Shown in pieces: positions 42 to 63,558 of a stretch of DNA of 64,000 nt; the first letter of the stretch is position 1, and every line of letters starts with the position of its first letter. The notes below the pieces were generated by a model. It searched no databases. It saw only the letters and a program-made list of their open reading frames with translations, and was not told the DNA's origin. The translations under genes and the position numbers were made by a program. This stretch comes from a virus (Duplodnaviria > Caudoviricetes), in IMG/VR virus record IMGVR_UViG_3300013121_000019, positions 68,375 to 132,374 of that record. One strand, written 5' to 3'.

Positions 42-59
42 GGTATAAGGACACTGAAG
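42..59 (+). promoter_or_regulatory. phage promoter motif GGTATAAG-N6-GAAG
   Basis: Copy of a motif recurring upstream of non-structural genes; followed by AAGGGAG RBS and ATG at 69. Confidence 0.7.
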
Positions 60-5056: not shown

Positions 5057-6105
5057 GCTGCTCCTGGACGTGTCAACGCCTGCAGGCGCTGAACGGTGTG
5101 ATGGTCGAACAGGCCGTTGATGGTCATGCGCTGCTGAGACTGGAACGTCATGATCGCGTCGGTGGTCTTACGGCCAACAACGCCGTCTGCACCCGCTGGC
5201 CCGAGGTCGAAGCCCAGCACCAACAGCATCTCCTGAAGCCGCACGATGGATGGCGTGTGCGCGGGGACGCGTAGCTCTGCGGCGAAGTCAGGAAGGTCCA
5301 CGCCGTAGCAGCGTTCCAACACCGGACGGATCTTGTTGTAGCGATCCGGGTAGATGGCGATTCCCGAATGGAATGTGAGCCTACGTAGCACGTCCACAAG
5401 GAAGCCGGGCTCAGTGGGCTGATAGCCGGTGGCCATCAGCGAGCGTTGCGCGATCGTCGGATTGTTGGCTGCGAAGCTGACGTAGGCGGCACGTGCCGCC
5501 TGCAGCTCCGGCGTCTCGCTGAGCTCATCGCTGAACAGCATCTTCTTGGCTGCTGGCATCACGAAGCCCATCAGATGATCGACGGTGAACAGCTTCTGCG
5601 CCGCAAGTGCCCGCGGATGTTGCAGATCGGTAGCGATGGCGGCGGCCCACTGTCTGGCGGTCTGCCGCTGCACGCTGTCCCAGGCGTCCGTGCGACCGGA
5701 AGAGCCCCCAAGGAATAGCTGCTGCTGCTCCTTGATGGTATCGACGACGAGTTCACCCAGACGAAATCTCCACTTGTCGCTGTCGACCAGCTCGAAGGTG
5801 CACCCATTGCGCCGGCACTCCGCCTTGAACCTGTCCATGGGTGCCCCGGCTTTGCGACACGCTCCGAGCAGCTGGCTGGCCATGAACTGCCCTGCCTCGG
5901 CGAACTGGATCAGTCCGATCGACAGGATCATGCGATCGTACATGTTGATCGCGTCGTACCGTCCGCCCTCGGTTGCCGTGACGACCGCCAGGATCTTCTC
6001 ATCCTCGGTCGGATCATCCGGTAGCTCGAACGAAATGGTGCCGGAGTACCACGGCCCGGAGAACTCACGGTAGCTACCCCACCTGATGTTGACTGAGTCG
6101 GTCAT
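5053..6105 (-). CDS. lysozyme-like peptidoglycan hydrolase with C-terminal PG-binding domain
   Basis: TEGGRYDAINMYD..SIGLIQF lysozyme-like segment; LQEML..GADGVVGRKTTDAIMTFQ PG_binding_1 signature; ATGA overlap gives start 6105. Confidence 0.7.
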   Translation of the reverse strand: MTDSVNIRWGSYREFSGPWYSGTISFELPDDPTEDEKILAVVTATEGGRYDAINMYDRMILSIGLIQFAEAGQFMASQLLGACRKAGAPMDRFKAECRRNGCTFELVDSDKWRFRLGELVVDTIKEQQQLFLGGSSGRTDAWDSVQRQTARQWAAAIATDLQHPRALAAQKLFTVDHLMGFVMPAAKKMLFSDELSETPELQAARAAYVSFAANNPTIAQRSLMATGYQPTEPGFLVDVLRRLTFHSGIAIYPDRYNKIRPVLERCYGVDLPDFAAELRVPAHTPSIVRLQEMLLVLGFDLGPAGADGVVGRKTTDAIMTFQSQQRMTINGLFDHHTVQRLQALTRPGAA

Positions 6106-6602
6106 CGGTTGCCTGCCCTCTGTGAACGCGCTCGAAGCCGTTCGATGTCCTCTTTCGATAGTTCCTTGTACCGGTTCCACGATGAAGTCGACGCCGGATC
6201 CGTGATGCTCTTGTTTGCGAGCAGCGTCTTACGAAGCTCGCGGTACCAAGCCTCCCCGACGTTGCTCGGTACCTCCCTGGTCTCCATCGCCCAACGGGCC
6301 ATCGGACCATCAGGCCACAAGCCGATCGTGACCGCATTGAAGTAGAGCTCAGCCTGCTCGCCAACGTTGTGGCAGAAGTTGACCTCACGGCGACTGAGGG
6401 TCGCACAGCCTACCACTGCGTTGTCGATGACGAACCACAGCTTGTCGCCGGGCTTGGCTCCCTCGTACTCATCTTCGCTGGCTGGTACGAACAGATCCGT
6501 TTCCGTCGTCTCTACACCTAGCTTGTAGCAGTACAGCCAACGACCCGCCGGACCGTCCGGCGAACGCCCGTCACTGCGAAGTGAGTACGCCCAGTGCTTC
6601 AT
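6102..6602 (-). CDS. hypothetical protein
   Basis: ATGA-coupled start 6602 with GGAGG RBS. Confidence 0.7.
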   Translation of the reverse strand: MKHWAYSLRSDGRSPDGPAGRWLYCYKLGVETTETDLFVPASEDEYEGAKPGDKLWFVIDNAVVGCATLSRREVNFCHNVGEQAELYFNAVTIGLWPDGPMARWAMETREVPSNVGEAWYRELRKTLLANKSITDPASTSSWNRYKELSKEDIERLRARSQRAGNR

Positions 6603-7778: not shown

Positions 7779-7796
7779 CTTCGGACTGCTTATACC
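7779..7796 (-). promoter_or_regulatory. phage promoter motif GGTATAAG-N6-GAAG
   Basis: Exact motif copy upstream of ORF 7745. Confidence 0.7.
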
Positions 7797-7809: not shown

Positions 7810-8227
7810 AAATGGCATCCGCCCCCTTTCGGGGGCGGGTACCTATCACGTTGAACGTGCAGATAAGCGTAAGCTACCAGTGAAGGTTGGAAGCAGGACC
7901 TCGAGACCTGTGACCAAGTAAACTGCCCTCGGCCGGGTGGAGACTGCGGTGTGGAGCACACTGCTCCGCATCGTAGTGGGCATCCGGTAACCCTTCGCGT
8001 AACGACTCCTGGGATGGGAGTCGTAACTGTTGCGTACGTTCGGCGGGCACTTAACCGACGCGATCAACAGCTTAGTTGAAGCAACGAACCACAGACAGAA
8101 ACCGAAACTACCTCCTTTGCTGGCGCATCGACGTCATTGTCATGCGCACGCTACACGCCCTACCGCAGGTTCCCTTGCGCTACTGTGGGCGGAGTAGAAG
8201 ACGAGGATGGTCGGCAACACCCTCTTC
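7810..8227 (-). ncRNA. candidate large structured non-coding RNA (~420 nt)
   Basis: No convincing CDS; begins at the promoter motif; near-continuous stems; ends in CCGCCCCC-GAAA-GGGGGCGG hairpin. Confidence 0.6.
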
Positions 8228-8241
8228 TTGATTCTTATACC
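8224..8241 (-). promoter_or_regulatory. phage promoter motif GGTATAAG-N6-GAAG
   Basis: Exact motif copy upstream of the structured non-coding region. Confidence 0.7.
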
Positions 8242-46165: not shown

Positions 46166-46183
46166 GGCATAAGAATAGTGAAG
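46166..46183 (+). promoter_or_regulatory. phage promoter motif GGCATAAG-N6-GAAG
   Basis: Exact motif followed by a GAAGAACG..CGTTCTTC 5' hairpin. Confidence 0.7.
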
Positions 46184-46924: not shown

Positions 46925-49864
46925 CTACCCCTGACTGACGTCTGTCCAAGACTGCGCCCATCGCGGTCCGATCCCGGCTAGCTCTTTCTTTGGCACCAGG
47001 ATGTCGGGCCTGGGGATCTCCAGCTGACTCGCCAGGAAGCAGTACAACACAGAGTGAAACGTATCGTCGGTCTTTCCCGGTGTGGTGTCGTACTGCATCA
47101 TCCGGAGAGTAGTGTTGTACTCAGCGTGGTTGTTGCACATGTCCTGCGCATACGGATCGTTCCATTCCTCGAAGCGTGGAAACTCGAACTGATGCCGCTT
47201 GATCGCATTGAACACGTCTGACATCACCTCGGTGCGGTGTACCTTGAAGCGCCCGAGCTTCGAGTCCCACTCGAGCTTCTTCTTGGTACGGCCCATATAC
47301 TGGTACTTGCGAACGCGAGTTGGACCGAACTTTCGGATCAGCACATCATTGCGGTCGTAGCCGCCGCCGTAGTCTGTGCCGATGAAGTGTACGTTGTACT
47401 GCTTGATCATCTGCATCAGCAGCTGCAGCTGAACTTTCGGCTCGAGCTCCTGGCCGGTGAAGCGATGCGCGTAGAAGATACGAAAACGGTTTCGTACGTA
47501 GGTGCCGAGCGTAACGACCGTGTAGGTATTCTCGCCCGTGTTGCCCTGGTAGGCGATGCGGCCGTTGCGCTCCGTCACGATGTAGCCGCTGGGCACTGCG
47601 CAGCAGTACACCTTGCCGCTGTACGGGACGTGCTCGACGTTCTTGTTGGGCGCGTTGAAGCAATGATCCCGACCTTCGGACCAGCTCGCTCGCCAGCGTG
47701 TCTTACGGTTGCCAGCAGCCTCCGCATGCAGCGACACAATGCACCGCATGCCCAAACGGATGCACAACTCTTGAAAGTCCTCACACAGAGCGCGTGACGT
47801 CGAGAAGTACGATCCGCCGGTGCAGCCCTCGCGTGGATCTCGCGATCCGTCACCGTCCACTAGCGCTTCGAACAGGATGCGGAGCTGTCGTTTGCTTAGC
47901 GCCAGAAACTCACGAGGAATCCGCTTAGCGTCACCGTGCATCCCGATGTTGTCGGCATACCAGCGCCAGTACTGCTTGCCGCAGATGGTCCAGTTGAGAT
48001 CGCTGGTCTCTTCATTCGGGAACTCGCTGAATGGGATGCCGAGTCGGCCCATGCATGCCTTCATCGCCAAAGCCTTCTCGTGGTTGGCGCTAGCGCGCTG
48101 CGACATCTTGATACAGTACGGTTTCTGGTCGTCTCCGCGCAGGCATACTCCGCCCTCGGAAATGAAGTACCCAAGAAGCTCCAGCCAGTCATCCATGCGC
48201 AGTTCTCGTGCGGCCGACCCAGCGTAGCCAGCGCTGCGCGCCACGCCTGGCAACATGAACGTCTCTCGTTCTTCGCCATCCCAACCCACATAGCCCACAA
48301 ACTTTGCAGCGCCTCCGCGCGCGGCGGTCTTGCCGGCTGACTCAGTCAGCCAAGCGCTGCTTTGACGGGTACCGGTACGCATTCGGTGGGTGTCGGTCAC
48401 CATCAGGTCGTACCCGTCGGTCTTGAAGTGCAGCAGCGGCTTGTCCCAGTCGCGTACAGTTAGGACTTTTGGCTCCACGAACGTCATCTTGCGCGTGTCA
48501 GGATCCCACTGGGCCACACGCTCCTTGCCGGTCAACTCGCGGAAATAGCGAAAGCCGTCCTCGGTGAGGATCCGCGTCTCCTCATCGTGGCAGCCCCAAT
48601 CCACGCCCATGAAGATTGGGTGGCTGTAGCTGAGCTTGCGATACTTATCGAGCTCGCTCGGATGCATCGACACCCGCGGGTTGCACTCGTTCTTGACCTG
48701 CCCGATGTTGAGCGGACGAGTTCCAGAGTCGTACGACAGCCCGAGAATCTCGTTGTAGAACTGAGCTCGCGGGTAGCTGCGGTAGTTGTAGAGAATCTCG
48801 CTCCACGGCTTCCACGGAACCATCAACTGAGGAATCCGGTACCCCTTGAACTGCGTTGCAGCCGGATCCCATTTGGTCTGGAACGCCCACTGGGCGTCCT
48901 TGTGCATCGGATCGATGAGGTTGCCGCAGCGCTCGCACGATAGGCCCTTCAGACCGATGTTCTTCTCGCCGAGAATGTTCCAGAAGCGGCCTGTGCCTGA
49001 TTTGCTACCGCAGCGGTCGCACGGCACCACCCACTCGCCCTGCGTGGAGTGCTGAGACCACCATGTCTCGATGGTGTTGTCCGTGGACTTCGGAGTACCG
49101 GCGTAGACGAAGCTGCGCCAGCGATCAGGAGCGTGGCCCGTGCACTGCTCGATGACCGGAATATTGCGCTCTAGGATGTCCTGGATCTCATCGATCAGTA
49201 GCTTGTACGCCGGGATGCCGCGGGTACGGTCTGCGTTCAGGTATGCGTTGCGGAGTTCGATCGAGGAGCCGTTGATGAAGCTTTTACGGAATACGTTCTG
49301 GCTGAGATCGTAGTTCGTGAAGCTTTTGAGAACCGACGATGTCTCGATCGGATCCTTGAGACGATCGTTGGAGAAAGTCTTGGTCTGTGTGGATGATGGG
49401 CTGACGTAGAGGGTCTTATGCCCGGCCACCAAGCACGAGTAGCTGAGCGCGATGTTGCCCAGCATGGTGGACTTCTCCACCTGACGAGCCGTCTTCAGAA
49501 GGATCTTCTTCGACGTCTCCGACGGGGAGTCATCGTAGATGTCCTTGATGTGTCGACGTCCCTCGAACGAGAACGGGACCAGGCCCATCTCGCCCATGAT
49601 CCGGAACGAGAACGTCACGAAGTCCGATAGGCTGACCTCGAGGGGCCCGCCGTCATCCACCGTGTCGTTGGTCGTGACAGAATCCGACCAAGAGTCGTTG
49701 GCCGGCAGCCAGATGTCGTCTACCGAGCGTCTGAACTTCGAGCGGTCATCCCCAGCTGTGGCCGCCCGAAGCTCCTCATCGGTCATCTCGAGCGGAAACA
49801 GGTCTTCCTCAGTGAGCTCTACCGGTCTCTCGTCTCGATAACAGTACGGAATCGGGCACGCCAT
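46925..49864 (-). CDS. terL: terminase large subunit (lambda GpA-like) with intein
   Basis: LKTARQVEKST Walker A, LLIDEIQD Walker B, AGTPK, CxxC pairs, FMGVDWG nuclease motif, TDDTFHS. Confidence 0.88.
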   Translation of the reverse strand: MACPIPYCYRDERPVELTEEDLFPLEMTDEELRAATAGDDRSKFRRSVDDIWLPANDSWSDSVTTNDTVDDGGPLEVSLSDFVTFSFRIMGEMGLVPFSFEGRRHIKDIYDDSPSETSKKILLKTARQVEKSTMLGNIALSYSCLVAGHKTLYVSPSSTQTKTFSNDRLKDPIETSSVLKSFTNYDLSQNVFRKSFINGSSIELRNAYLNADRTRGIPAYKLLIDEIQDILERNIPVIEQCTGHAPDRWRSFVYAGTPKSTDNTIETWWSQHSTQGEWVVPCDRCGSKSGTGRFWNILGEKNIGLKGLSCERCGNLIDPMHKDAQWAFQTKWDPAATQFKGYRIPQLMVPWKPWSEILYNYRSYPRAQFYNEILGLSYDSGTRPLNIGQVKNECNPRVSMHPSELDKYRKLSYSHPIFMGVDWGCHDEETRILTEDGFRYFRELTGKERVAQWDPDTRKMTFVEPKVLTVRDWDKPLLHFKTDGYDLMVTDTHRMRTGTRQSSAWLTESAGKTAARGGAAKFVGYVGWDGEERETFMLPGVARSAGYAGSAARELRMDDWLELLGYFISEGGVCLRGDDQKPYCIKMSQRASANHEKALAMKACMGRLGIPFSEFPNEETSDLNWTICGKQYWRWYADNIGMHGDAKRIPREFLALSKRQLRILFEALVDGDGSRDPREGCTGGSYFSTSRALCEDFQELCIRLGMRCIVSLHAEAAGNRKTRWRASWSEGRDHCFNAPNKNVEHVPYSGKVYCCAVPSGYIVTERNGRIAYQGNTGENTYTVVTLGTYVRNRFRIFYAHRFTGQELEPKVQLQLLMQMIKQYNVHFIGTDYGGGYDRNDVLIRKFGPTRVRKYQYMGRTKKKLEWDSKLGRFKVHRTEVMSDVFNAIKRHQFEFPRFEEWNDPYAQDMCNNHAEYNTTLRMMQYDTTPGKTDDTFHSVLYCFLASQLEIPRPDILVPKKELAGIGPRWAQSWTDVSQG
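47540..48592 (-). mobile_element. intein (351 aa) with LAGLIDADG endonuclease in TerL nuclease domain
   Basis: GVDWG|CHDEETRILT ... YSGKVYCCAVP..RNGRIAYQGN|T; LLGYFISEG and EALVDGDGS blocks. Confidence 0.92.
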
Positions 49865-55001: not shown

Positions 55002-58000
55002 TCAGTAGTGGTGCGTCGGAACGTCCTTGAGGTGGCTGTACTGCGGCTTCTTGGAGTCGGTCGACGTGAGGCCAAACTCTACCGCGTAGGCGGAGCCCGG
55101 CACAGGGTGTGTGCCGTGGATGCTCGAAGAGCCGTGAGTTGCGGCCGCGTCGAGGATGGTCGCCGAGATGTGGTTGTGCTGCAGCTTCGCCATCCAGTCT
55201 TCTTGCACCGACAGCGGGAGCATGCTGACGCCCTGAAGCGTCGGCTCGTGCTGGATGGGGCGCTTGCCCTTCAGCTGTGTGGCGTTGATGTGGTTGACGA
55301 CGCTGGTCGGGTGGAACTCCCCACGTAGGATCGTCGGGTGGTCACCCGGGTTGGTGACCTTCGTGAGGTTGCCCATCGCCTTCACGACGATCTCCGATTG
55401 CAGACGGCGCACCCCCTCGTCCTTGAACAGCTGATGGAGCTCGTTCGCCAGGTGCCCCTGGACGACGTCCATGCGGCCCGTTGCCTCCAGCAGCGCGTGC
55501 GGGTTCATGACGGTGCGACTAGGGTCACCCAGCGGCTGCCCCGCCGTGACTTTCATGCCGACCTTCGGCGGTTCCCACCCTTCAACTGGGGCACCGGGCA
55601 GCGGGTGGTGCAGCAGGTTACCTGCGTGGTCACGCCCAACGTGGTGTGGCTTCCCGTCGACGTGGATGGTGGCGCCTGTGCGGTCAACAGAGATGTTGTC
55701 GATCGTGCCACTACGCATGGCCAGTGGTGTTGCGTCCGGCAACGTCTTCGGCAGGTTGGTGAGCTGCTCGAGCTTCGTCAGACCGCCGACCAGCGTGCCG
55801 CCTCCACCAGCTGCACCACCCGTGTGGAACACGCGCATCGACAGCTGCACCGCTCGCTCCCCTAGCGTCTGCGCGGCCACCACACCGGCGTTGGTACCGA
55901 TCGGGGTCAGGCCACCGGAGGTGGTCAGGCCAAGGCACTTCTGGCAGAAGCCATGTGAGTGCTCGCACTTCAACGGACTGCGCACGACCAACGTGGCGTC
56001 CTTCTTGGCTGCGCGAATGCGGTCTACCAGCGATGGAGTCAGAACCGTTCCGGCAGGGATCTCCAGACCGTTCGCCTTGAAGGGCTGTGCCAGGAAGCGG
56101 TCATGAACGTCCGTCGTGTTGCGCCCGTGCTTGTCCACGACCGGCAGCGCGATGCCCTTGTCGGTGCCGCAGTCGGGCTCCGCCACGACCATGTGCATCG
56201 ACGAGTTCATCATGAGTTTCGTCAGGTAGCCGGGACGCTGCACCTCCTGCACCTTCATCACCGTTCCACGGCGCGCTCCGTACATCTGCGTCCAGTACCC
56301 GCCAAGATCTAGGCCCTCCGAGTAGTTCTTTGTGACCGGGATCGGGATGTCGCGACCCAGCGAATCCTGGAACGTCATCGGCGCCAAGACCAGCTGCTTG
56401 TACTGTGTCCACCCGGGCTTGTCGCCGGAGGTGGCCATCAGCGTGAGGTTCGACGGGTTCGAGTCCATGTGGCTCTTGTGCAGCTTCTTCATCTCAGCGT
56501 CGGCTGCCTTCCAGACCTCCACGGCGCGTCGCTCTTTTTCTGGCTCGCGCAGCGACGACTTGTTGATGGCATCGACCTTAGCCTGCGCCGCCATGACGAC
56601 GGTCGCGCGGGTCTTGTTGTCGGGAGTGAAGTCAGAAAGGCTCAGCGTGTGCGCCCCAATAGGCACGTCTTTTCCGATGAGTGTCTGCGGAATCACCCCG
56701 AATGCCGCGCCGTTCCCCAGATCCTTCAGCTTGTTTGCCACCGTGCCGAAGTCAGGCGCGTGATCTCGCGCCAACGTCGTCATGACGTGCGACAACTTGT
56801 CGGACGTCAGTACGTTGTCCATCGAGCCAAGCAGGTACGGGCGCATCGCGGTCGGAAGCGTGTTGGCCACCAGGACTCTGCCGGGCGTCGTTTCCGTTCC
56901 ACCAACCTTCACGACGTCGGAGTACTTCAGTTGCCCGTTCTTGAACGCCTCCGTCACAGCGTCGTGGGAAGAGAACGTATGGGAGGTCTTCTGCCCAGGG
57001 ATCGTCAGCCGGTAGACGCCCAGCAACGACTCCTTGGTCGGTTGGTACATGACTTTGCCCGTCGCCTCATTGAAGAGGTTTGCCGACGGCATCATCTTCT
57101 TGGCCTCCTGCACCGCATCGTGCGCGATCGGCACGTAGAGGCTCACCATGTCTCCGTCAAAGTCTGCGTTGTAGGACCCGCAGATCAACGGATGCACCTG
57201 GATCGCGGTGCCGTTCACGATGCGCGGCTTGAACCCCTGGACGTTGTACTTGTGCAGCGCTGGGTCGCGCTTCATCAGCACGGGGCGCTCTGCGATCACT
57301 TCGTTCAACGCGTGATTCACGAGCTCGCCGTTCTTGGCCAAGTGCTCCTGCGCCACGATCGGCGCCATGCCGGTGTTGACCAGCTTGTTGACGATGAACG
57401 GCCTGAAGAGCTTGACCGCGACGTCACGCGGGATACCCACTTCATCGAGACCTAGTGCCGGCTCAGGAACGATGACGGAGCGTGCCGTCAGGTCCTGTCG
57501 ACGGCTCATCAGGGTCTTCTGGAAGAAGCCCTTCTTCGGTTGGATGCCCTGGATCGTGTGCAACAGTCCCTTCTGATCTGCGCGATCGTACGGAATGCCA
57601 ACCCCCATCAGGGCCTTGACGCCGTCGTACAACGACTTCCGAAGATCGACACGAAACTGCGGCGGTGCCTTCAGCTTCAGGCCGGGTTTCGCTAGCTGCT
57701 CGTTCAGCATCGCGAACTGCACGTAGAGCCCGTTGATGTCGTCGTAGCGGATGTCGCCAGACGGCAACACCGTGACAGGGCGCATGGCGGGCGGTAGTAC
57801 CGGTAGATGGTGCAGCACGTACGCGTCTGCTGCTCCGATCTTCAGCTGGTCTAGCGCGCGCAGGTACTTTGCTCGCTTCAGGAAGTCGTTGATCTTGGCA
57901 GACTTGTTGGACGAGGCAGACAGAAGGGCCAACGTCTTCTTGAGCTCAGCCTGAACATCGATCTTCTTCAGGGCCGCCTCGATGGCCGTGCCGCCGGTCA

Positions 58001-61000
58001 GGCCCTGGTGTGGCTCGACCACGTGCCCGGCTGCCGACAGCCCCTTGGTGCCGGCCACGATAGCGTCGAACTCGTTGCCCTTGAGGTGCAGCAACGAGCA
58101 GATCGGCTCCTCGAACGTCGGGTTAGGTAGCGGCTCCGCCAGCGCGATGTGGCTCCATTTGGTTCCACCGAACCCGCCGGTCAGCTTCTCATCGAACAGA
58201 CCGCCCTTGAGCTCCTTGACGTCCTTCGCACGTACCACCTTGATCGGGTCGGGAATGGCGCCGGCCGACAAGCGCAGGATCTGTTGATCCGTAAGAGGGG
58301 ACAGAACGAAGTTGTGCCCCTTCTTCTCCATGTTGATGCCGGCACCGCGCAAGTACGACTCGAACTTCTTGAAGGCGAACGTCGGCTGCGGTGTCGGTAG
58401 CGGCGTACCTCGCTGGATGGCGCCCCATACCTCGGCGTGCTGGGACACGTGCCCGCCCTTGACGTTCACGTCCTCCGTTGGCGTACCCTCGGACTTCCAC
58501 GTGTTCATCTCGCGGATGTTGGCCTTGGCGCCATGTGCGAGGAGCGCGTAGTAGCCGAGGCTGCCGATCGACTGCCCGCCCTGGTGCCCGCCACCAACAG
58601 GCTGCATGTTCGAATCGTAGTGTTCCTTGGCTGGCTGACCCGGCAGCCCCATTCCGGACCGCACCGATACCTTCTTCTCGACCTGATGCACGAGCTTGTG
58701 GAGGTACTGGTGCCCAACAAGTACCTCCCCAAGAGGCAGCTTCGTCAGCGGATCGATCAGCTTCTCCGTGTCCTTGATGCCGTGTGCGGCCAGATCCGAC
58801 TTGATCTTGTCGAGGTAGTTCACCCCAGGATCGAAGTTGCGAACCGCGTACGGCTTGCCCATCTTCAAGGCGATCTTCGAGGCGGCGGTCTCGAACAGCT
58901 GCGCAGGGTTCATACGTCCCGGCACGCCAAACGGGTTCAGCAACACGTCGACAGGCTTACCGTGCTCGTCGTGTGGCATCTCGTGGTCTGGAATGATGCG
59001 CGTGACGACGCCCTTGTTGGCGGAGCGACCAGCGATCTTGTCGCCGACCTGCATGGACTCCGCAGTGCGCACGTGCACGACGATGTCCTTGCCCTTACGG
59101 TGCGTAGCGATCACCTCGCCGGGATGCTCGGAGTCCCACGCTACGGAGGCGTTGGAGTGATGGGCGGCGAGGCTCTTGTGGATATGCGCCAGCGATGTCT
59201 TGTCTTGCACAGCCAGAGGGCGCAGTGCCACAACCAGAGGGTCTCCAGGCTTCACGATTGTCCCAACGTGGACAACACCGTCGTCACCGATCGTGCTGAG
59301 CTGCTCCTTCGTGTAGACGCCGGGGTGATGAATGTTGAACTTTCGCTTGTCCAAGATCACCGTGTCGTCTGTGCGAAGGCTGGGCTTGTACAGGTGGTTC
59401 GACGTGAACTTCTTTGCAGCCGACTCGCTGATGACAACACCGTCCTCGAAGTTCAGTCCCTTGTAGGGGATGTACGCGACGCGCATGTTGGTGCCGAGCG
59501 CCATGACGCCGTTCTTGGAGAAGTTGGTGTCGGCGATGGTCTGCTTGCTCTTGACGGTGTCTCCAGCCTTTACCAGCGGGATAGACGTGATCATCGCCCG
59601 GGGGTCATTCAGCGGGTAGTGGTCGTACAGTGGCACGTCATGCGCCGTGCCGTCCTTGTCCTTGATGATGATGCTGTCCCGGCGTACCTGGTGAACCGTA
59701 CCGTCGACAGGAGACTGGTGCGACGCTACGTTCCCAAGTACTTCCTCGAACGTGGTGTTGCCGACGCCGGTCTTCACCTGCACAAGCGGCGGCTCGCGGT
59801 GGACCAGCGAGATGGCCTGCTCCATGTGCCTGCCGGCCATCGACGCGCGAGGGCCAGACACCGAAGGCAGCATCGGGATCAAGTTCGACCCGATGTCCCA
59901 CAGCTGTGTGGCCTGCGGAAGCACGTAGTCGGCCTCGCTGATCGGCTTCTTCGAGATATGGTTGCCGACACCCATCGTGCTGACCGACGGGTACAGCGCC
60001 TTCGGTGTCCCGTCGGGTTTCCAAGAGACCTGATCAGGAAGAACCACGTTCGACTGCAAGAACGTTGCCGGGTTGATCCACTCGAGCTTCTTGGTCTTGG
60101 TGTTGTACGCTCGAAGCTGAGCCTCGGATCCGTTCTTGCGCACGCCGAGCGGTAGCCGCAGCGTGATGCCGGTCTTCTCGCCCTCCGGCGTGTGCAGCGG
60201 GTCGATGAATCCGAAGTGGCTCTGGTTGATGAGCTTGGAGCTCTCCATCACCTTGTGCGCCGACTGGATGCCACCGGGCCCCATGACGGTCGTCTGCATG
60301 GAGCTGGCTACCATCTCAAGCGGGTTGATCTGGTCAGGCACCCGGGCGAGAGACGAGCGGAACATCGCGCGTACGGGCTCGTTGAAGAACTCCGTCTTGA
60401 ACGCCTCACGCACGTTGGTGGCGCTATCGATGGTTCGCTGCACCTTAGTGCGGATGCGCGGAATTGCCTGACGAATGTGATCTGCAGCGAACTCACCAGC
60501 CGACCGCAGCGACTTGAAGATCAGGCTGTCGCGGTCATCTTCCGGTTGCCCGTCATGTACGGACAGCAGCCGCTTGGTGGCGGCCGTCATCGCTTCGCCA
60601 GAAGCAAACTCAAACGGGCGCCCGAGCGTCAGCTTGGTCATATCTGGACGAAGCTTCGAGTTGAACAGCAGCGTCCGTAGGTGCTCGACCGCGGCCTCGT
60701 GCGACGGCGGTGCCTCTCCGACTTCCGACTTGTAGAACTTCATCAGCACGCCGGCGGCCCCGCGTACATCCTTGTTGGCTTCCAGGATGTCCTTGCCCCA
60801 CGCGCGCTCGAGTTCCGGATCCGTCATCCCCGCGGCGTGCAGGATCGGGTAAAGCGGCAGATTGCTCTTACCCCAGTTGAACACGAACTGCTTCTTGTCC
60901 GGGTGAAACACGATGTCGAAAGAGCCACGACCAGCCAGGTTGAATCGGCTTTCGAGCTCACCGTTCTGACGTCGACGCGTGTACACGCCCGGGTTCAGCT

Positions 61001-61346
61001 GCCACTGGTTCTCCAGCTGGTACTCCTGCCCACCAACGATGTAGCTGTACCTTCCGCGCGTCATCTTCGGAAGATCCACAAGCTTGACCTTGCGACGGTC
61101 CAACACCTTTCCGGTGGCGTTGTCTCGCAGCGTCACACGGCCGAAGACAGGAACTCCCCAGGTATCCCCGGAGATCTTGGCCTGGTGCTGCGCTTTGATG
61201 TCGTCGGCCTTCGGAACGTGGCCGAACTCCACATCCTCGAGGTGCAGCGACTGCTTGGCACCAGTCAGAGGGAAGTGCTTCTTGATCTCGTCAACGGTCT
61301 GATCGCGCAGAACGTTGAAGCCTTCTTCGGGATTGACGTATGTCAT
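55002..61346 (-). CDS. rpoBC: DNA-directed RNA polymerase, fused beta-beta' single polypeptide
   Basis: Beta motifs GFIDPLHTPEG, GLNFEDG, GDKIAGRSANKGV, LNPFGVPGRMN, GGQSIG; beta' motifs RSVIVP, KRDPALH, YNADFDGD, GARRG, GYLTK, DCGT, VRSPLKC, AAQTLGERAVQLSMRVFHTGG. Confidence 0.95.
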   Translation of the reverse strand: MTYVNPEEGFNVLRDQTVDEIKKHFPLTGAKQSLHLEDVEFGHVPKADDIKAQHQAKISGDTWGVPVFGRVTLRDNATGKVLDRRKVKLVDLPKMTRGRYSYIVGGQEYQLENQWQLNPGVYTRRRQNGELESRFNLAGRGSFDIVFHPDKKQFVFNWGKSNLPLYPILHAAGMTDPELERAWGKDILEANKDVRGAAGVLMKFYKSEVGEAPPSHEAAVEHLRTLLFNSKLRPDMTKLTLGRPFEFASGEAMTAATKRLLSVHDGQPEDDRDSLIFKSLRSAGEFAADHIRQAIPRIRTKVQRTIDSATNVREAFKTEFFNEPVRAMFRSSLARVPDQINPLEMVASSMQTTVMGPGGIQSAHKVMESSKLINQSHFGFIDPLHTPEGEKTGITLRLPLGVRKNGSEAQLRAYNTKTKKLEWINPATFLQSNVVLPDQVSWKPDGTPKALYPSVSTMGVGNHISKKPISEADYVLPQATQLWDIGSNLIPMLPSVSGPRASMAGRHMEQAISLVHREPPLVQVKTGVGNTTFEEVLGNVASHQSPVDGTVHQVRRDSIIIKDKDGTAHDVPLYDHYPLNDPRAMITSIPLVKAGDTVKSKQTIADTNFSKNGVMALGTNMRVAYIPYKGLNFEDGVVISESAAKKFTSNHLYKPSLRTDDTVILDKRKFNIHHPGVYTKEQLSTIGDDGVVHVGTIVKPGDPLVVALRPLAVQDKTSLAHIHKSLAAHHSNASVAWDSEHPGEVIATHRKGKDIVVHVRTAESMQVGDKIAGRSANKGVVTRIIPDHEMPHDEHGKPVDVLLNPFGVPGRMNPAQLFETAASKIALKMGKPYAVRNFDPGVNYLDKIKSDLAAHGIKDTEKLIDPLTKLPLGEVLVGHQYLHKLVHQVEKKVSVRSGMGLPGQPAKEHYDSNMQPVGGGHQGGQSIGSLGYYALLAHGAKANIREMNTWKSEGTPTEDVNVKGGHVSQHAEVWGAIQRGTPLPTPQPTFAFKKFESYLRGAGINMEKKGHNFVLSPLTDQQILRLSAGAIPDPIKVVRAKDVKELKGGLFDEKLTGGFGGTKWSHIALAEPLPNPTFEEPICSLLHLKGNEFDAIVAGTKGLSAAGHVVEPHQGLTGGTAIEAALKKIDVQAELKKTLALLSASSNKSAKINDFLKRAKYLRALDQLKIGAADAYVLHHLPVLPPAMRPVTVLPSGDIRYDDINGLYVQFAMLNEQLAKPGLKLKAPPQFRVDLRKSLYDGVKALMGVGIPYDRADQKGLLHTIQGIQPKKGFFQKTLMSRRQDLTARSVIVPEPALGLDEVGIPRDVAVKLFRPFIVNKLVNTGMAPIVAQEHLAKNGELVNHALNEVIAERPVLMKRDPALHKYNVQGFKPRIVNGTAIQVHPLICGSYNADFDGDMVSLYVPIAHDAVQEAKKMMPSANLFNEATGKVMYQPTKESLLGVYRLTIPGQKTSHTFSSHDAVTEAFKNGQLKYSDVVKVGGTETTPGRVLVANTLPTAMRPYLLGSMDNVLTSDKLSHVMTTLARDHAPDFGTVANKLKDLGNGAAFGVIPQTLIGKDVPIGAHTLSLSDFTPDNKTRATVVMAAQAKVDAINKSSLREPEKERRAVEVWKAADAEMKKLHKSHMDSNPSNLTLMATSGDKPGWTQYKQLVLAPMTFQDSLGRDIPIPVTKNYSEGLDLGGYWTQMYGARRGTVMKVQEVQRPGYLTKLMMNSSMHMVVAEPDCGTDKGIALPVVDKHGRNTTDVHDRFLAQPFKANGLEIPAGTVLTPSLVDRIRAAKKDATLVVRSPLKCEHSHGFCQKCLGLTTSGGLTPIGTNAGVVAAQTLGERAVQLSMRVFHTGGAAGGGGTLVGGLTKLEQLTNLPKTLPDATPLAMRSGTIDNISVDRTGATIHVDGKPHHVGRDHAGNLLHHPLPGAPVEGWEPPKVGMKVTAGQPLGDPSRTVMNPHALLEATGRMDVVQGHLANELHQLFKDEGVRRLQSEIVVKAMGNLTKVTNPGDHPTILRGEFHPTSVVNHINATQLKGKRPIQHEPTLQGVSMLPLSVQEDWMAKLQHNHISATILDAAATHGSSSIHGTHPVPGSAYAVEFGLTSTDSKKPQYSHLKDVPTHHY

Positions 61347-61462: not shown

Positions 61463-61497
61463 GCAACCGATCAACACGGTTGCGGGAGAACGAGTGC

Positions 61498-61662
61498 ATG
61501 TCGATGACTGAGCCTGGGGAAAGTGTATTCGAGAGTCTTCTCTCTGGGCTGGTCGAGGGTATCCCTGATCCAGTGGACGCAGTGCCGTTCGACGAGCTCG
61601 ACGACGGCGCTGGCTGGGCGGACGACTCCGCCAGCTACGACAGCAGTACCGACAGCGAGTAG
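61498..61662 (+). CDS. small very acidic protein
   Basis: GGAG RBS; Asp/Glu/Ser-rich, no Lys or Arg. Confidence 0.5.
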   Translation: MSMTEPGESVFESLLSGLVEGIPDPVDAVPFDELDDGAGWADDSASYDSSTDSE

Positions 61663-61744: not shown

Positions 61745-62341
61745 GTGATCATCAATCCTTACCGCGAGCCCCTCCAGACGTACCCAGACAGTAACCTGCT
61801 GGTAGACGACTTCGGGCTGACCAACGTTGAGATAGACGATACCGTCGACACCTCACGAGTGTGGACAGTCCAAGGTGTCTACCGGCCCCATCCGGGCCGT
61901 GTGCTGGGCGGACTACGCATTCGGCTCACGGACCCGGATGGGTTCGTTTCATTCGTCAATCAACGGGACCTCGAGGTGCTGCTTGGCCTCGCTGAACCCG
62001 GCACGCTCTGCAGGTGGTCTGGTCGCGAGTACCCAAGGCCAGGCACGCCCAACTGGTACGGTGTCTGCTGCGACGAGTACGACCTACAGGACGACCTGTA
62101 CATGCGCGAGTTGGAGCTCAGATTCGACTTCAAGGATCAGCGTTTCTGCTTGCCGCAAGGTGTGGAGTGCTCTCGGCGAGTGCATCTGGAGCACGGCAAA
62201 GATGTGTTCGAGCGCTTTTGGCTGCTGGGCGACGTTGGACCGGACGGAGTATCGCCGGACATGCACCGTAGCCGCGTTTCTCTTCGGTGGGTTCGCCTAG
62301 AGCGCACAACACTGGAAAAGGTTGGTGGCCAATGGCTGTAG
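61745..62341 (+). CDS. hypothetical protein
   Basis: GTG start after GAGG. Confidence 0.7.
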   Translation: MIINPYREPLQTYPDSNLLVDDFGLTNVEIDDTVDTSRVWTVQGVYRPHPGRVLGGLRIRLTDPDGFVSFVNQRDLEVLLGLAEPGTLCRWSGREYPRPGTPNWYGVCCDEYDLQDDLYMRELELRFDFKDQRFCLPQGVECSRRVHLEHGKDVFERFWLLGDVGPDGVSPDMHRSRVSLRWVRLERTTLEKVGGQWL

Positions 62342-62979
62342 TGCGGTATCCGGGGTTCGGTAGACGTGCGCCGCCGGAAGTGCGGCTTTCGGGGGAGCAC
62401 TGCTACCAGTGCGGTGAAGAGTTCGTCTACGGTGAGTTCGTTACGCTCGTACAAGGCGTGTGGCTGGAGCACGACGCGGAAAGTAACGAACTGGCCATGC
62501 CGCCGATCATCAGTGAAGTTGGCGAGCCGCTTTATGAGCCGAGGCTATTCCACGAAGGGTGCTTCGATTCCACGCTAGCGCACATGCGCGCAGCGGCCGC
62601 TGATGTCCTGCCGATCCGAACAACGGACTCGTGGAGGGACTGCACCTGCTGCACCAATTCGGTACTGCTGGGGGAGAAGTGCGCTCTGGTCGAGATCGGT
62701 CGACTAGAGGCACGTGGCGGTAATCTGCACGCATTCGAGGGTAAGCGAGACGCTGGCATCATCTGCATGATCTGTGTGAACCGGCTAGCCGACGATTTCG
62801 AAGCCAGCGATGCCGGTACTGAGATCTGGGATGAGATGGCGCAAGACCAAGAATGCAGCAGCTGCACCGACGACATGTGCTGGCGTGACCCTGGCTGTGA
62901 CTGCCCTTGTCATGATGAAGACGAGGAAGACGACAACGAAGAAGAGGATGAGGAGGATACGGATGCCGCTTATCGATGA
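62332..62979 (+). CDS. Cys-rich zinc-finger-like protein with acidic tail
   Basis: CxxC, HxxC, CxxC, CxxC pairs and a C-terminal Cys cluster. Confidence 0.7.
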   Translation: MAVVRYPGFGRRAPPEVRLSGEHCYQCGEEFVYGEFVTLVQGVWLEHDAESNELAMPPIISEVGEPLYEPRLFHEGCFDSTLAHMRAAAADVLPIRTTDSWRDCTCCTNSVLLGEKCALVEIGRLEARGGNLHAFEGKRDAGIICMICVNRLADDFEASDAGTEIWDEMAQDQECSSCTDDMCWRDPGCDCPCHDEDEEDDNEEEDEEDTDAAYR

Positions 62980-63145
62980 GCTCAAACTGAGTAAGACCAA
63001 CAGGCTGATCCTCGAGGAGTGGGTTCGTACGAACGACTGGGGTGTCGTGAAGAAGAACCTGAACGTGACCGACGCGGAGATCAACAGCGCCAAGCGCGTC
63101 GCAGTCGCGAAGGCCGCGCGGGCACAGTCGGAGAGGGCACGATGA
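62963..63145 (+). CDS. small hypothetical protein
   Basis: AGGAGG RBS; ATGA overlap with next gene. Confidence 0.6.
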   Translation: MPLIDELKLSKTNRLILEEWVRTNDWGVVKKNLNVTDAEINSAKRVAVAKAARAQSERAR

Positions 63146-63558
63146 CCACGTACGATGAGTGGATGGCGTCCAAGTGGAGTAAAGTCGTCTGGGTGACGAG
63201 CTGCTCCGTTAGCCTAAACGACCTGCGGAGGCACGTCAGCATGAACAACCTGGTGCTGGACCACTACACGGAGCTACGCGGAGATGTGCCGTCCGGCATC
63301 CAAGCCGAGCTCGCAGACTCGATCGTCGACAGGATGGTCAACGTGATGAGCCACACGGTGGTGGTGACGCTCATGGAGCTCCCGCTGCTGCGGCTACTGC
63401 GACAGGTGCGGGAGGGACACATCGGCGGCCGGCAGGTCGACGTCATCGTGCTGTCCAAGGATCTGACACCGCACACCCTGCGGGTCGACAACACCGGAGA
63501 GTTCGTGGACGTGTGGCCCGAGGGCTTCTTCGAGGAACGCGCCAAGGAGCTGTTCTGA
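63142..63558 (+). CDS. stand-alone DUF3696-like/ABC-ATPase C-terminal fragment
   Basis: IQAELAD..LLRLLRQVREG..LRVDNTGEFVDVWPEGFFEERAKELF. Confidence 0.7.
   Translation: MTTYDEWMASKWSKVVWVTSCSVSLNDLRRHVSMNNLVLDHYTELRGDVPSGIQAELADSIVDRMVNVMSHTVVVTLMELPLLRLLRQVREGHIGGRQVDVIVLSKDLTPHTLRVDNTGEFVDVWPEGFFEERAKELF

Follow-up and report, generated by a model that had tools for sequence, protein, structure and literature searches.

The window, by which we mean the whole 64,000-nt stretch of DNA from an uncultured phage that was analysed, is the final 64 kb of a 132,374-bp IMG/VR record with a CheckV completeness of 72%. A gene for a protein of 138 amino acids (P0001) ends 442 bp from the contig end. 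The original prediction had placed the gene at 63142-63558, and the open reading frame lies at these coordinates. The gene is present as a single copy in the phage record, where it matches the profile of its family with an E value of 8e-44. At its 5' end the ATG shares bases with the TGA of a small upstream ORF (ATGA, 63142-63145), and at its 3' end the ATG of the following ORF begins within its stop codon (TGATG); these overlaps, read directly from the sequence, represent the tight translational coupling that is typical for a phage operon. The features of the locus are as follows.

63130..63137, plus strand: GGAGAGGG, a Shine-Dalgarno-like site read from the sequence, 4-8 nt 5' of the ATG.
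63142..63558, plus strand: the mini-NsnB-like gene, with its ATG at 63142 and the stop codon TGA at 63556-63558, encoding 138 aa.
63142..63180, plus strand: N-terminal extension, residues 1-13, common only to this protein and its closest homologue (P0002); pLDDT 71.
63181..63249, plus strand: family-specific strand-loop-helix, residues 14-36 (strand 15-20 and helix 25-34 by AlphaFold2), with a conserved I/V-x-x-T-S.
63250..63279, plus strand: Walker-B-equivalent strand LVLDHYTELR, residues 37-46, from column statistics and alignments.
63286..63327, plus strand: VPSGIQAELADSIV, residues 49-62, the counterpart of the LHPxLQAELADxFI helix that follows Walker B, with the D-loop region.
63364..63378, plus strand: H-loop equivalent VTLME, residues 75-79, from alignments and column statistics.
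63379..63417, plus strand: conserved helix LPLLRLLRQVREG, residues 80-92, from alignment A1, AlphaFold2 and column statistics.
63436..63555, plus strand: beta-hairpin and DUF3696 tail, residues 99-138, from Pfam DUF3696, PADLOC PDC-M55A and column statistics.

The gene lies among small orphan genes that run on the plus strand from 61480 to the contig end. None of its neighbours in this run belongs to a Pfam or PHROGs family, and no known anti-defence genes are found beside it in the window; the large terminase subunit is encoded at 46925-49864. We found no sigma-70-like promoter between 61200 and 64000 of the window. A different motif, GGYATAAS-N6-GAAG, occurs in four exact copies, at 42-59 (+), 7779-7796 (-), 8224-8241 (-) and 46166-46183 (+), and is over-represented in the window when up to two mismatches are allowed (18 matches compared to 7.3 expected; none of 100 shuffles reached 18). 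Upstream of the gene cluster only variants with two mismatches are present (61412 and 61445), and about 7 such variants are expected by chance. The early expression that the original prediction had supposed for the gene is a conjecture.

Three other genes in this part of the window deserve mention in their own right. Divergent from the cluster, a single ORF on the minus strand (55002-61346) encodes a 2114-aa fused beta-beta' RNA polymerase of the multisubunit type, identified by matches to Rpb2_6 (1.8e-55) and Rpb1_2 (3.4e-30) and by the presence of NADFDGD. Within the cluster, 61480-61662 (+) encodes an orphan, strongly acidic protein of 60 aa, and 62287-62979 (+) an orphan, Cys-rich protein of 230 aa that ends in a long Asp/Glu run, neither with a Pfam or PHROGs family; judged by composition alone, these two products recall DNA-mimic or zinc-binding accessory proteins.

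The 138-aa protein has no family match in PHROGs or NCBIfam, and a sequence search of the PDB returned only a chance-level match, to RpfC (E 0.18). The original prediction had likened it to the tail of AAA_21/AAA_15-DUF3696 ATPases and had suggested hmmscan as a check. The Pfam DUF3696 model (PF12476) does match residues 110-137 on profile positions 24-49 of 52 with an E value of 0.0042, but the score of 17.7 bits does not reach the gathering cut-off of 22 bits, and the homology of the tail is established by profile-profile comparison instead. The likeness itself is well supported by other searches. The PADLOC model PDC-M55A matches residues 53-136 on profile positions 320-405 of 421 (E 2.6e-7), and phmmer, run exhaustively against 1.84 billion representatives, yielded 581 matches at E ≤1e-3, most of which are the extreme C-termini of AAA_15/AAA_21+DUF3696 proteins of 450-900 aa; the best PADLOC models for these full-length relatives are NsnB (Menshen), PDC-M55A and HEC-03B. 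Similarly, the protein matches only positions 409-497 of the 499 in a profile of full-length ATPases, and hhalign of 20 short proteins like it against 35 full-length ATPases gave a probability of 99.8% (E 4e-29) from the Walker B strand to the C-terminus. These comparisons indicate homology of residues ∼40-138 to this same stretch of NsnB/PDC-M55A-type ATPases. The three motif correspondences that had been pointed out beforehand were all recovered: VPSGIQAELADSIV aligns with LHPxLQAELADxFI, VVVTLMELPLLRLLRQVREG with hIETHSEHLxLRLxRRIREG, and GEFVDVWPEGFFEERAKELF with the DUF3696 tail.

The homologous part has lost the catalytic residues and retained the tail. We defined the positions conserved in at least 85% of the full-length set and compared 35 full-length with 20 short proteins. 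In the 35 full-length ATPases, Walker B E-Q-P-E, H-x-H-P and H-loop E-T-H-S are conserved at 91-100%. In the 20 short proteins, the residues of E-Q-P-E are kept in 15%, 15%, 45% and 5%, those of H-x-H-P in 20%, 0% and 25%, and those of E-T-H-S in 0%, 25%, 0% and 15%, respectively. By contrast, E79, L83, R84, R90, G119, F121, W125, P126, G128, F129, F130 and E136 are kept in 85-100% of the short proteins. The 138-aa protein itself follows this pattern. No Walker A motif, GxxxxGK[ST], occurs anywhere in its 138 residues, while the full-length relatives have G-x-N-S-x-G-K-S. With respect to E-Q-P-E, the first Glu is kept (E44), Gln and Pro are replaced, and the catalytic Glu falls in a gap; in the VPSGIQAELADSIV helix Q54 is retained and the histidines of H-x-H-P are gone; and in VTLME, compared to E-T-H-S-E, the switch His has become L77, such that T-H-S reads T-L-M. 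The next residue, E79, is invariant in both the short family and the full-length ATPases, and L83, R84 and R90 are kept in 90-100% of both. The tail has the form G-x-F-x-D-x-W-P-x-G-F-F (G119, F121, D123, W125, P126, G128, F129 and F130), with residues that are conserved at 75-100% in the short family versus 97-100% in the full-length proteins.

Thus, the catalytic loss that had been claimed (Walker A absent, Walker B and D-loop degenerate, H-loop His lost) is apparent both in the alignments and in the column statistics. Since the catalytic positions have collapsed and Walker A is absent while the tail is kept, the protein is, judging by its residues, almost certainly not an ATPase; with Walker A, the catalytic Walker B Glu, the signature-bearing insert and the H-loop His all lost, neither ATP hydrolysis nor a normal ATP-sandwich dimer would be expected. 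The conservation pattern indicates that selection acts on the short family to retain a module made up of the helix, the hairpin and the tail.

AlphaFold2 with the family alignment predicts a compact alpha/beta domain (pLDDT 89, pTM 0.81), in which the order of elements is strand 15-20, helix 25-34, strand 41-45, helix 51-68, strand 72-76 and helix 80-90, followed in the C-terminal part by a hairpin (99-115) and a helix (129-137). The protein thus keeps a minimal three-strand alpha/beta core, the helix that follows the H-loop, the beta-hairpin and the DUF3696 tail. Foldseek of the model against the PDB gave no match at E ≤1e-3. In a wide VIA search against 48,161 PDB representatives, nearly all matches were ABC-type nucleotide-binding domains; the best was GajA (8u7i_A, Z 8.2), the matching chain in PDB 8u7i being GajA and not Gad1, followed by ABC transporters, Rad50, SMC, MutS and UvrA (Z 6.4-8.0). 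These Z values are at the grey level of the tool and count, therefore, only jointly with the sequence homology. A Foldseek search of BFVD matched the model to small, uncharacterised proteins encoded by cultured jumbo phages (E 4e-6 to 7e-4, TM 0.5-0.76, identity 9-18%), including A0A172JI18 of Bacillus phage AR9, B2ZYK5 of Ralstonia phage phiRSL1 and K4FB66 of Cronobacter phage GAP32. We rejected the AR9 protein as a relative, because the short-family profile finds no match in the AR9 genome; without such a relative at the sequence level, the BFVD fold matches may reflect only a common alpha/beta arrangement.

The N-terminal part of the protein is the one without a clear counterpart. Its first strand superposes near the P-loop strand of ABC proteins in the wide search, and in the structural alignment residues 14-36 sit spatially at the P-loop strand and helix, without GxxxxGK[ST]. 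In comparisons with full-length proteins and with the phage mini-ATPases described below, the N-terminus has no confident sequence alignment to the Walker A strand or to the signature region. The N-termini MITLIFGFTGVGKS, MITLIVGKNGKEEK and MITFVTSMTCS resemble a series, which is suggestive only as to the origin of the N-terminal strand-helix. Most members of the short family begin at the equivalent of residue 14 (MIHYVTS... in alignment A1). The description of the protein as a C-terminal fragment is therefore right with respect to its homology to the ATPase C-terminus, but not with respect to its architecture, since it has an N-terminal strand-helix unit of its own and folds as a complete small domain.

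The protein belongs to a family of similarly short proteins. Proteins of 124-150 aa align to it end to end with 29-43% identity (phmmer; 29-42% with the 19 other members of alignment A1), and a profile search of 5.8 billion proteins yielded ∼30 clusters, all of them metagenomic, unnamed and without precomputed Pfam domains. E79, L83, G119, G128, F130 and L137 are invariant in alignment A1. Like the rest of the family, the 138-aa protein is 125-150 aa in length and has an N-terminal hydrophobic strand with T-S, E79/L83/R84/R90, a GEFxDxWPxGFF tail and no ATPase motifs. In a tree of the last 100 residues (103 columns; finer order weak), 28 short proteins, this one included, fall on one side of a 99/92 branch. 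Synonymous divergence is extreme: among six members dS is saturated or undefined, such that the apparent omega of 0.2-0.7 carries no information. All frames are nonetheless open and length is constant, although dS is saturated.

The contexts in which short-family genes occur are uniform in kind. We inspected nine, namely the window and the loci of P0002, P0003, P0005, P0008, P0011, P0058, P0007 and P0158; in all nine, tiny orphan ORFs follow one another on the same strand in long arrays. The contigs are phage-like, measure 55-503 kb and carry phage markers here and there (Lar, UvrD, SNF2, integrase, HNH, Kyano_Gp96 and T4_Y16D). A conserved two-gene module was considered and rejected, as the six loci compared have only the short gene in common. 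The family is rare and was not found in 50,697 GenBank phage records by megablast or tblastn with three members (P0001, P0007 and P0158) as queries. A scan of 185,579 species genomes with alignment A3 returned 11 relatives, all of the full-length type with an intact ETHS H-loop; 8 of these are whole or nearly whole with Walker A, and 3 are shorter or cut ORFs. As far as sampled, the short family is limited to phages.

A second group of phage proteins, of ∼180-220 aa (P0010, P0020, P0174 and L002), lies between the short family and the full-length ATPases in appearance. These mini-ATPases have the C-terminal half and the tail in common with the short family, occur in a similar phage context and align with it by hhalign (99.9%); unlike the short family, they retain a Walker A strand, which may be intact or degenerate in part, and in most cases an ETHSE H-loop. 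Across five proteins (P0010, P0020, P0174, P0015 and P0080), Walker A decays in graded steps. An IMG/VR contig of 195,108 bp with terminal repeats and a CheckV completeness of 100% (L002) encodes at 5713-6279 a mini ABC ATPase of 188 aa with an intact Walker A (GFTGVGKS), ETHSE and the DUF3696 tail, without the long insert. Nothing else in this complete 195-kb phage matches the full-length profile, and the phage has no full-length ATPase. The mini-ATPases look like evolutionary intermediates; in the tree of 103 columns they group with the full-length proteins and not with the short clade. Full-length DUF3696 ATPases with partners also occur on viral contigs in IMG/VR (L003 and L008).

The bacterial relatives place this ATPase type in anti-phage defence. 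The closest bacterial ATPases are from Planctomycetota, Myxococcota, Sphingomonas, Verrucomicrobiota and Bryobacteraceae. Directly downstream of every one, overlapping it or a few bases away, lies a gene for a homologous orphan protein of 300-350 aa, and the pairs adjoin Type I or Type III restriction(-modification) genes, a DruH-like gene or PDC-S08, that is, they lie in defence islands. The C-terminal domain of the partner protein has a confidently predicted fold (pLDDT 83-94), the top matches of which all belong to the phospholipase D superfamily (Z 7-10: PLD, MITD1 2ymb, NucT 6ehi, SauUSI, BfiI and Zucchini); its features include an H-x-R motif and, following a strand, an Asp that is invariant. 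On the basis of the modelled fold, the partner fits the PB-PLD1 effector domain of NsnC (PMC12065111). Two-gene modules of an ATPase and a PLD-fold partner were seen at L021 (1652-10504), L019, L020, L024, L026, L029, L003 and L008, without a DUF262 gene in the flanks that were scanned; in L021 the pair is flanked by HsdM-HsdS on one side and the DruH-like gene on the other.

Indeed, the earlier statement that DUF3696 ATPases are subunits of anti-phage systems is substantiated by these neighbourhoods and by the NsnB, PDC-M55A and HEC-03B scores of the relatives. The accompanying label of sensor subunits needs correction, since in the Menshen study NsnB is interpreted as the transducer, the sensor being NsnA (DUF262) (PMC12065111). 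In the same study, AlphaFold3 models of 25 Menshen systems place the N-terminal adaptor of NsnC between two DUF3696 tails of NsnB, and NsnB is predicted to form GajA-like tetramers via two interfaces (PMC12065111).

Compared to these systems, the 138-aa protein is similar in one part and different in all others. It shares with NsnB, PDC-M55A and HEC-03B the homology from the Walker B strand to the C-terminus, the same invariant residues in helix and tail, and an ABC-like core. It differs from NsnB in length (138 versus 450-900 aa), in the lack of Walker A, signature-bearing insert, catalytic Glu and H-loop His, and in being encoded by a phage and not in a defence island. Neither next to its gene nor in the rest of the 72%-complete record is there an NsnA, NsnC or PLD partner gene. 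That record contains no full-length ATPase, AAA_15, PLD partner or DUF262, and no remnant of an N-terminal ATPase part in any frame; the genes of a Menshen operon, a DUF262/ParB-like NsnA and an NsnC effector, are absent next to the short gene, where all neighbours are orphans. The ATPases of the bacterial two-gene modules (L019-L029) are the closest full-length relatives of its tail, identical at up to 88% of the last 26 residues, but they are complete, have intact motifs and a PLD-fold partner, and lie among restriction genes. Because all defining features of the NsnB type fail except the tail, we name the protein a member of a derived mini-family and not an NsnB; on the residue-level evidence it represents a miniaturised, catalytically inactive relative of Menshen-type NsnB.

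What such a protein does is suggested by the combination of a tail that is kept, an enzyme that is lost and a gene that stands alone in phage accessory arrays, of which mimicry is the simplest reading. We tentatively favour the view that the protein is a candidate anti-defence mimic of Menshen-type NsnB, a view in which we infer what the protein binds (effector or ATPase), that it inhibits defence, and when it is expressed. The protein would be made during infection, and its DUF3696 tail would bind the N-terminal adaptor domain of a host NsnC-like effector, such as a PB-PLD1 nuclease; in a less probable variant it would dock onto the host ATPase itself. Either kind of docking would break the link between effector and ATPase switch, and defence would fail to fire. 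A dominant-negative or decoy role is plausible because the published AlphaFold3 models put DUF3696 tails on the effector (PMC12065111), whereas docking to an ATPase oligomer is less likely because the motifs that form the dimer are those that have been lost. The contact between DUF3696 and effector is itself an AlphaFold3 prediction with two tails on an ATPase dimer, a clamp that a mini-protein acting as a monomer may be unable to form. The rarity of the family, its absence from the GenBank phage records and the lack of a known anti-defence gene beside the gene in the window also weigh against this reading. The likeliest kind of target would be the two-gene modules of an NsnB-like ATPase and a PB-PLD1-type effector.

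A functional analogy for this role is provided by Gad1, a phage protein that neutralises an OLD/ABC-type ATPase defence complex (Gabija GajAB). Gad1 has no relationship to its target in sequence or fold, and it acts by encasing the complex. The 138-aa protein differs from Gad1 in that it is derived from the target family itself.

Alternatively, the mini-domain and its tail could have been co-opted for an accessory role in the phage apart from host defence, as an adaptor or regulatory subunit in a phage or host process, for example for a phage nuclease or replication factor; the resemblance to NsnB would then be a matter of ancestry only. We consider this less likely than mimicry, but it is the main alternative. 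The mini-ATPases with intact Walker A and H-loop (188-217 aa), one of them in the complete 195-kb phage that lacks a full-length ATPase, leave room for a function intrinsic to phages from which the dead forms were derived; the BFVD matches in AR9, phiRSL1 and GAP32 hint that the fold belongs to a wider phage family, and all neighbours of the gene in the window are orphans. On the other hand, the residues that were kept are exactly those that are invariant in the tail of the defence ATPases, which is most simply explained by binding of the same kind of partner; moreover, no conserved phage neighbour or partner accompanies the short gene, and AR9 has no sequence relative.

The protein might instead be used in conflict on the side of the phage, by recruiting or releasing an effector nuclease of the host or of a prophage (for degradation of host DNA or exclusion of competitors), or it might be a regulatory subunit left over from an exclusion system that the phage carries, with the effector in the missing 28% of the genome. 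The incompleteness of the record, the position of the gene 442 bp from the contig end and the existence of full-length ATPases with partners on viral contigs (L003 and L008) are consistent with such a use. We regard it as improbable, since the eight other contexts, inspected for up to 10 kb on each side, contain no ATPase or PLD partner and no conserved neighbour, the complete phage with the mini-ATPase has no full-length ATPase, and without ATPase motifs the protein cannot serve as the usual switch.

A further alternative is a poison subunit, a variant of the decoy in which the protein docks, through what remains of its core surface, on a host NsnB-like ATPase and blocks tetramer assembly or ATP-driven switching, without binding the effector. 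The retained ABC-like core, with its matches to GajA 8u7i_A (Z 8.2) and to ABC, Rad50 and SMC proteins, would suit this role, as would the two interfaces of the predicted GajA-like tetramer of NsnB. Nevertheless, the elements of the ATP-sandwich interface (Walker A, signature motif and D-loop histidines) are lost or degenerate, and conservation is concentrated in the tail and not in the core; we consider this variant quite improbable.

Finally, that the gene is a functionless, decaying pseudogene fragment of a captured defence ATPase, as the missing catalytic motifs and the single-sequence Pfam score under the gathering cut-off might suggest, is very improbable: neutral decay, which the original prediction had named among the outcomes that would contradict it, is at odds with a conserved family of ∼30 constant-length clusters whose frames are open at saturated dS, with invariant positions, a family-specific N-terminal motif, a confident fold, translational coupling and a Shine-Dalgarno site, and with the lack of any N-terminal ATPase remnant in the phage record.

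The preferred reading, anti-defence mimicry of NsnB, would have consequences beyond this phage. In the literature searched, neither a phage DUF3696 protein nor an inhibitor of Menshen or of relatives of the DUF3696 ATPases is described. It may be, although we hold this broader claim with slightly more reserve, that the family represents the first phage anti-defence proteins to have arisen by capture and shrinkage of the defence system's own ATPase: a tail-only, dominant-negative titrator of the effector, the first anti-Menshen protein, and one old clade distributed across diverse large phages. The coupling of NsnB to its effector is known so far only from structure predictions; if the 138-aa protein binds the effector, this would be experimental confirmation of the DUF3696 tail as an effector-docking module. 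The protein also offers a compact probe of ∼125 aa for the coupling of ATPase and effector in the OLD/ABC class of defence systems (Gabija, Septu, PARIS and Menshen). If the proposed mechanism is true, self-derived dominant-negative mimicry would join the known strategies by which phages counter host defence.
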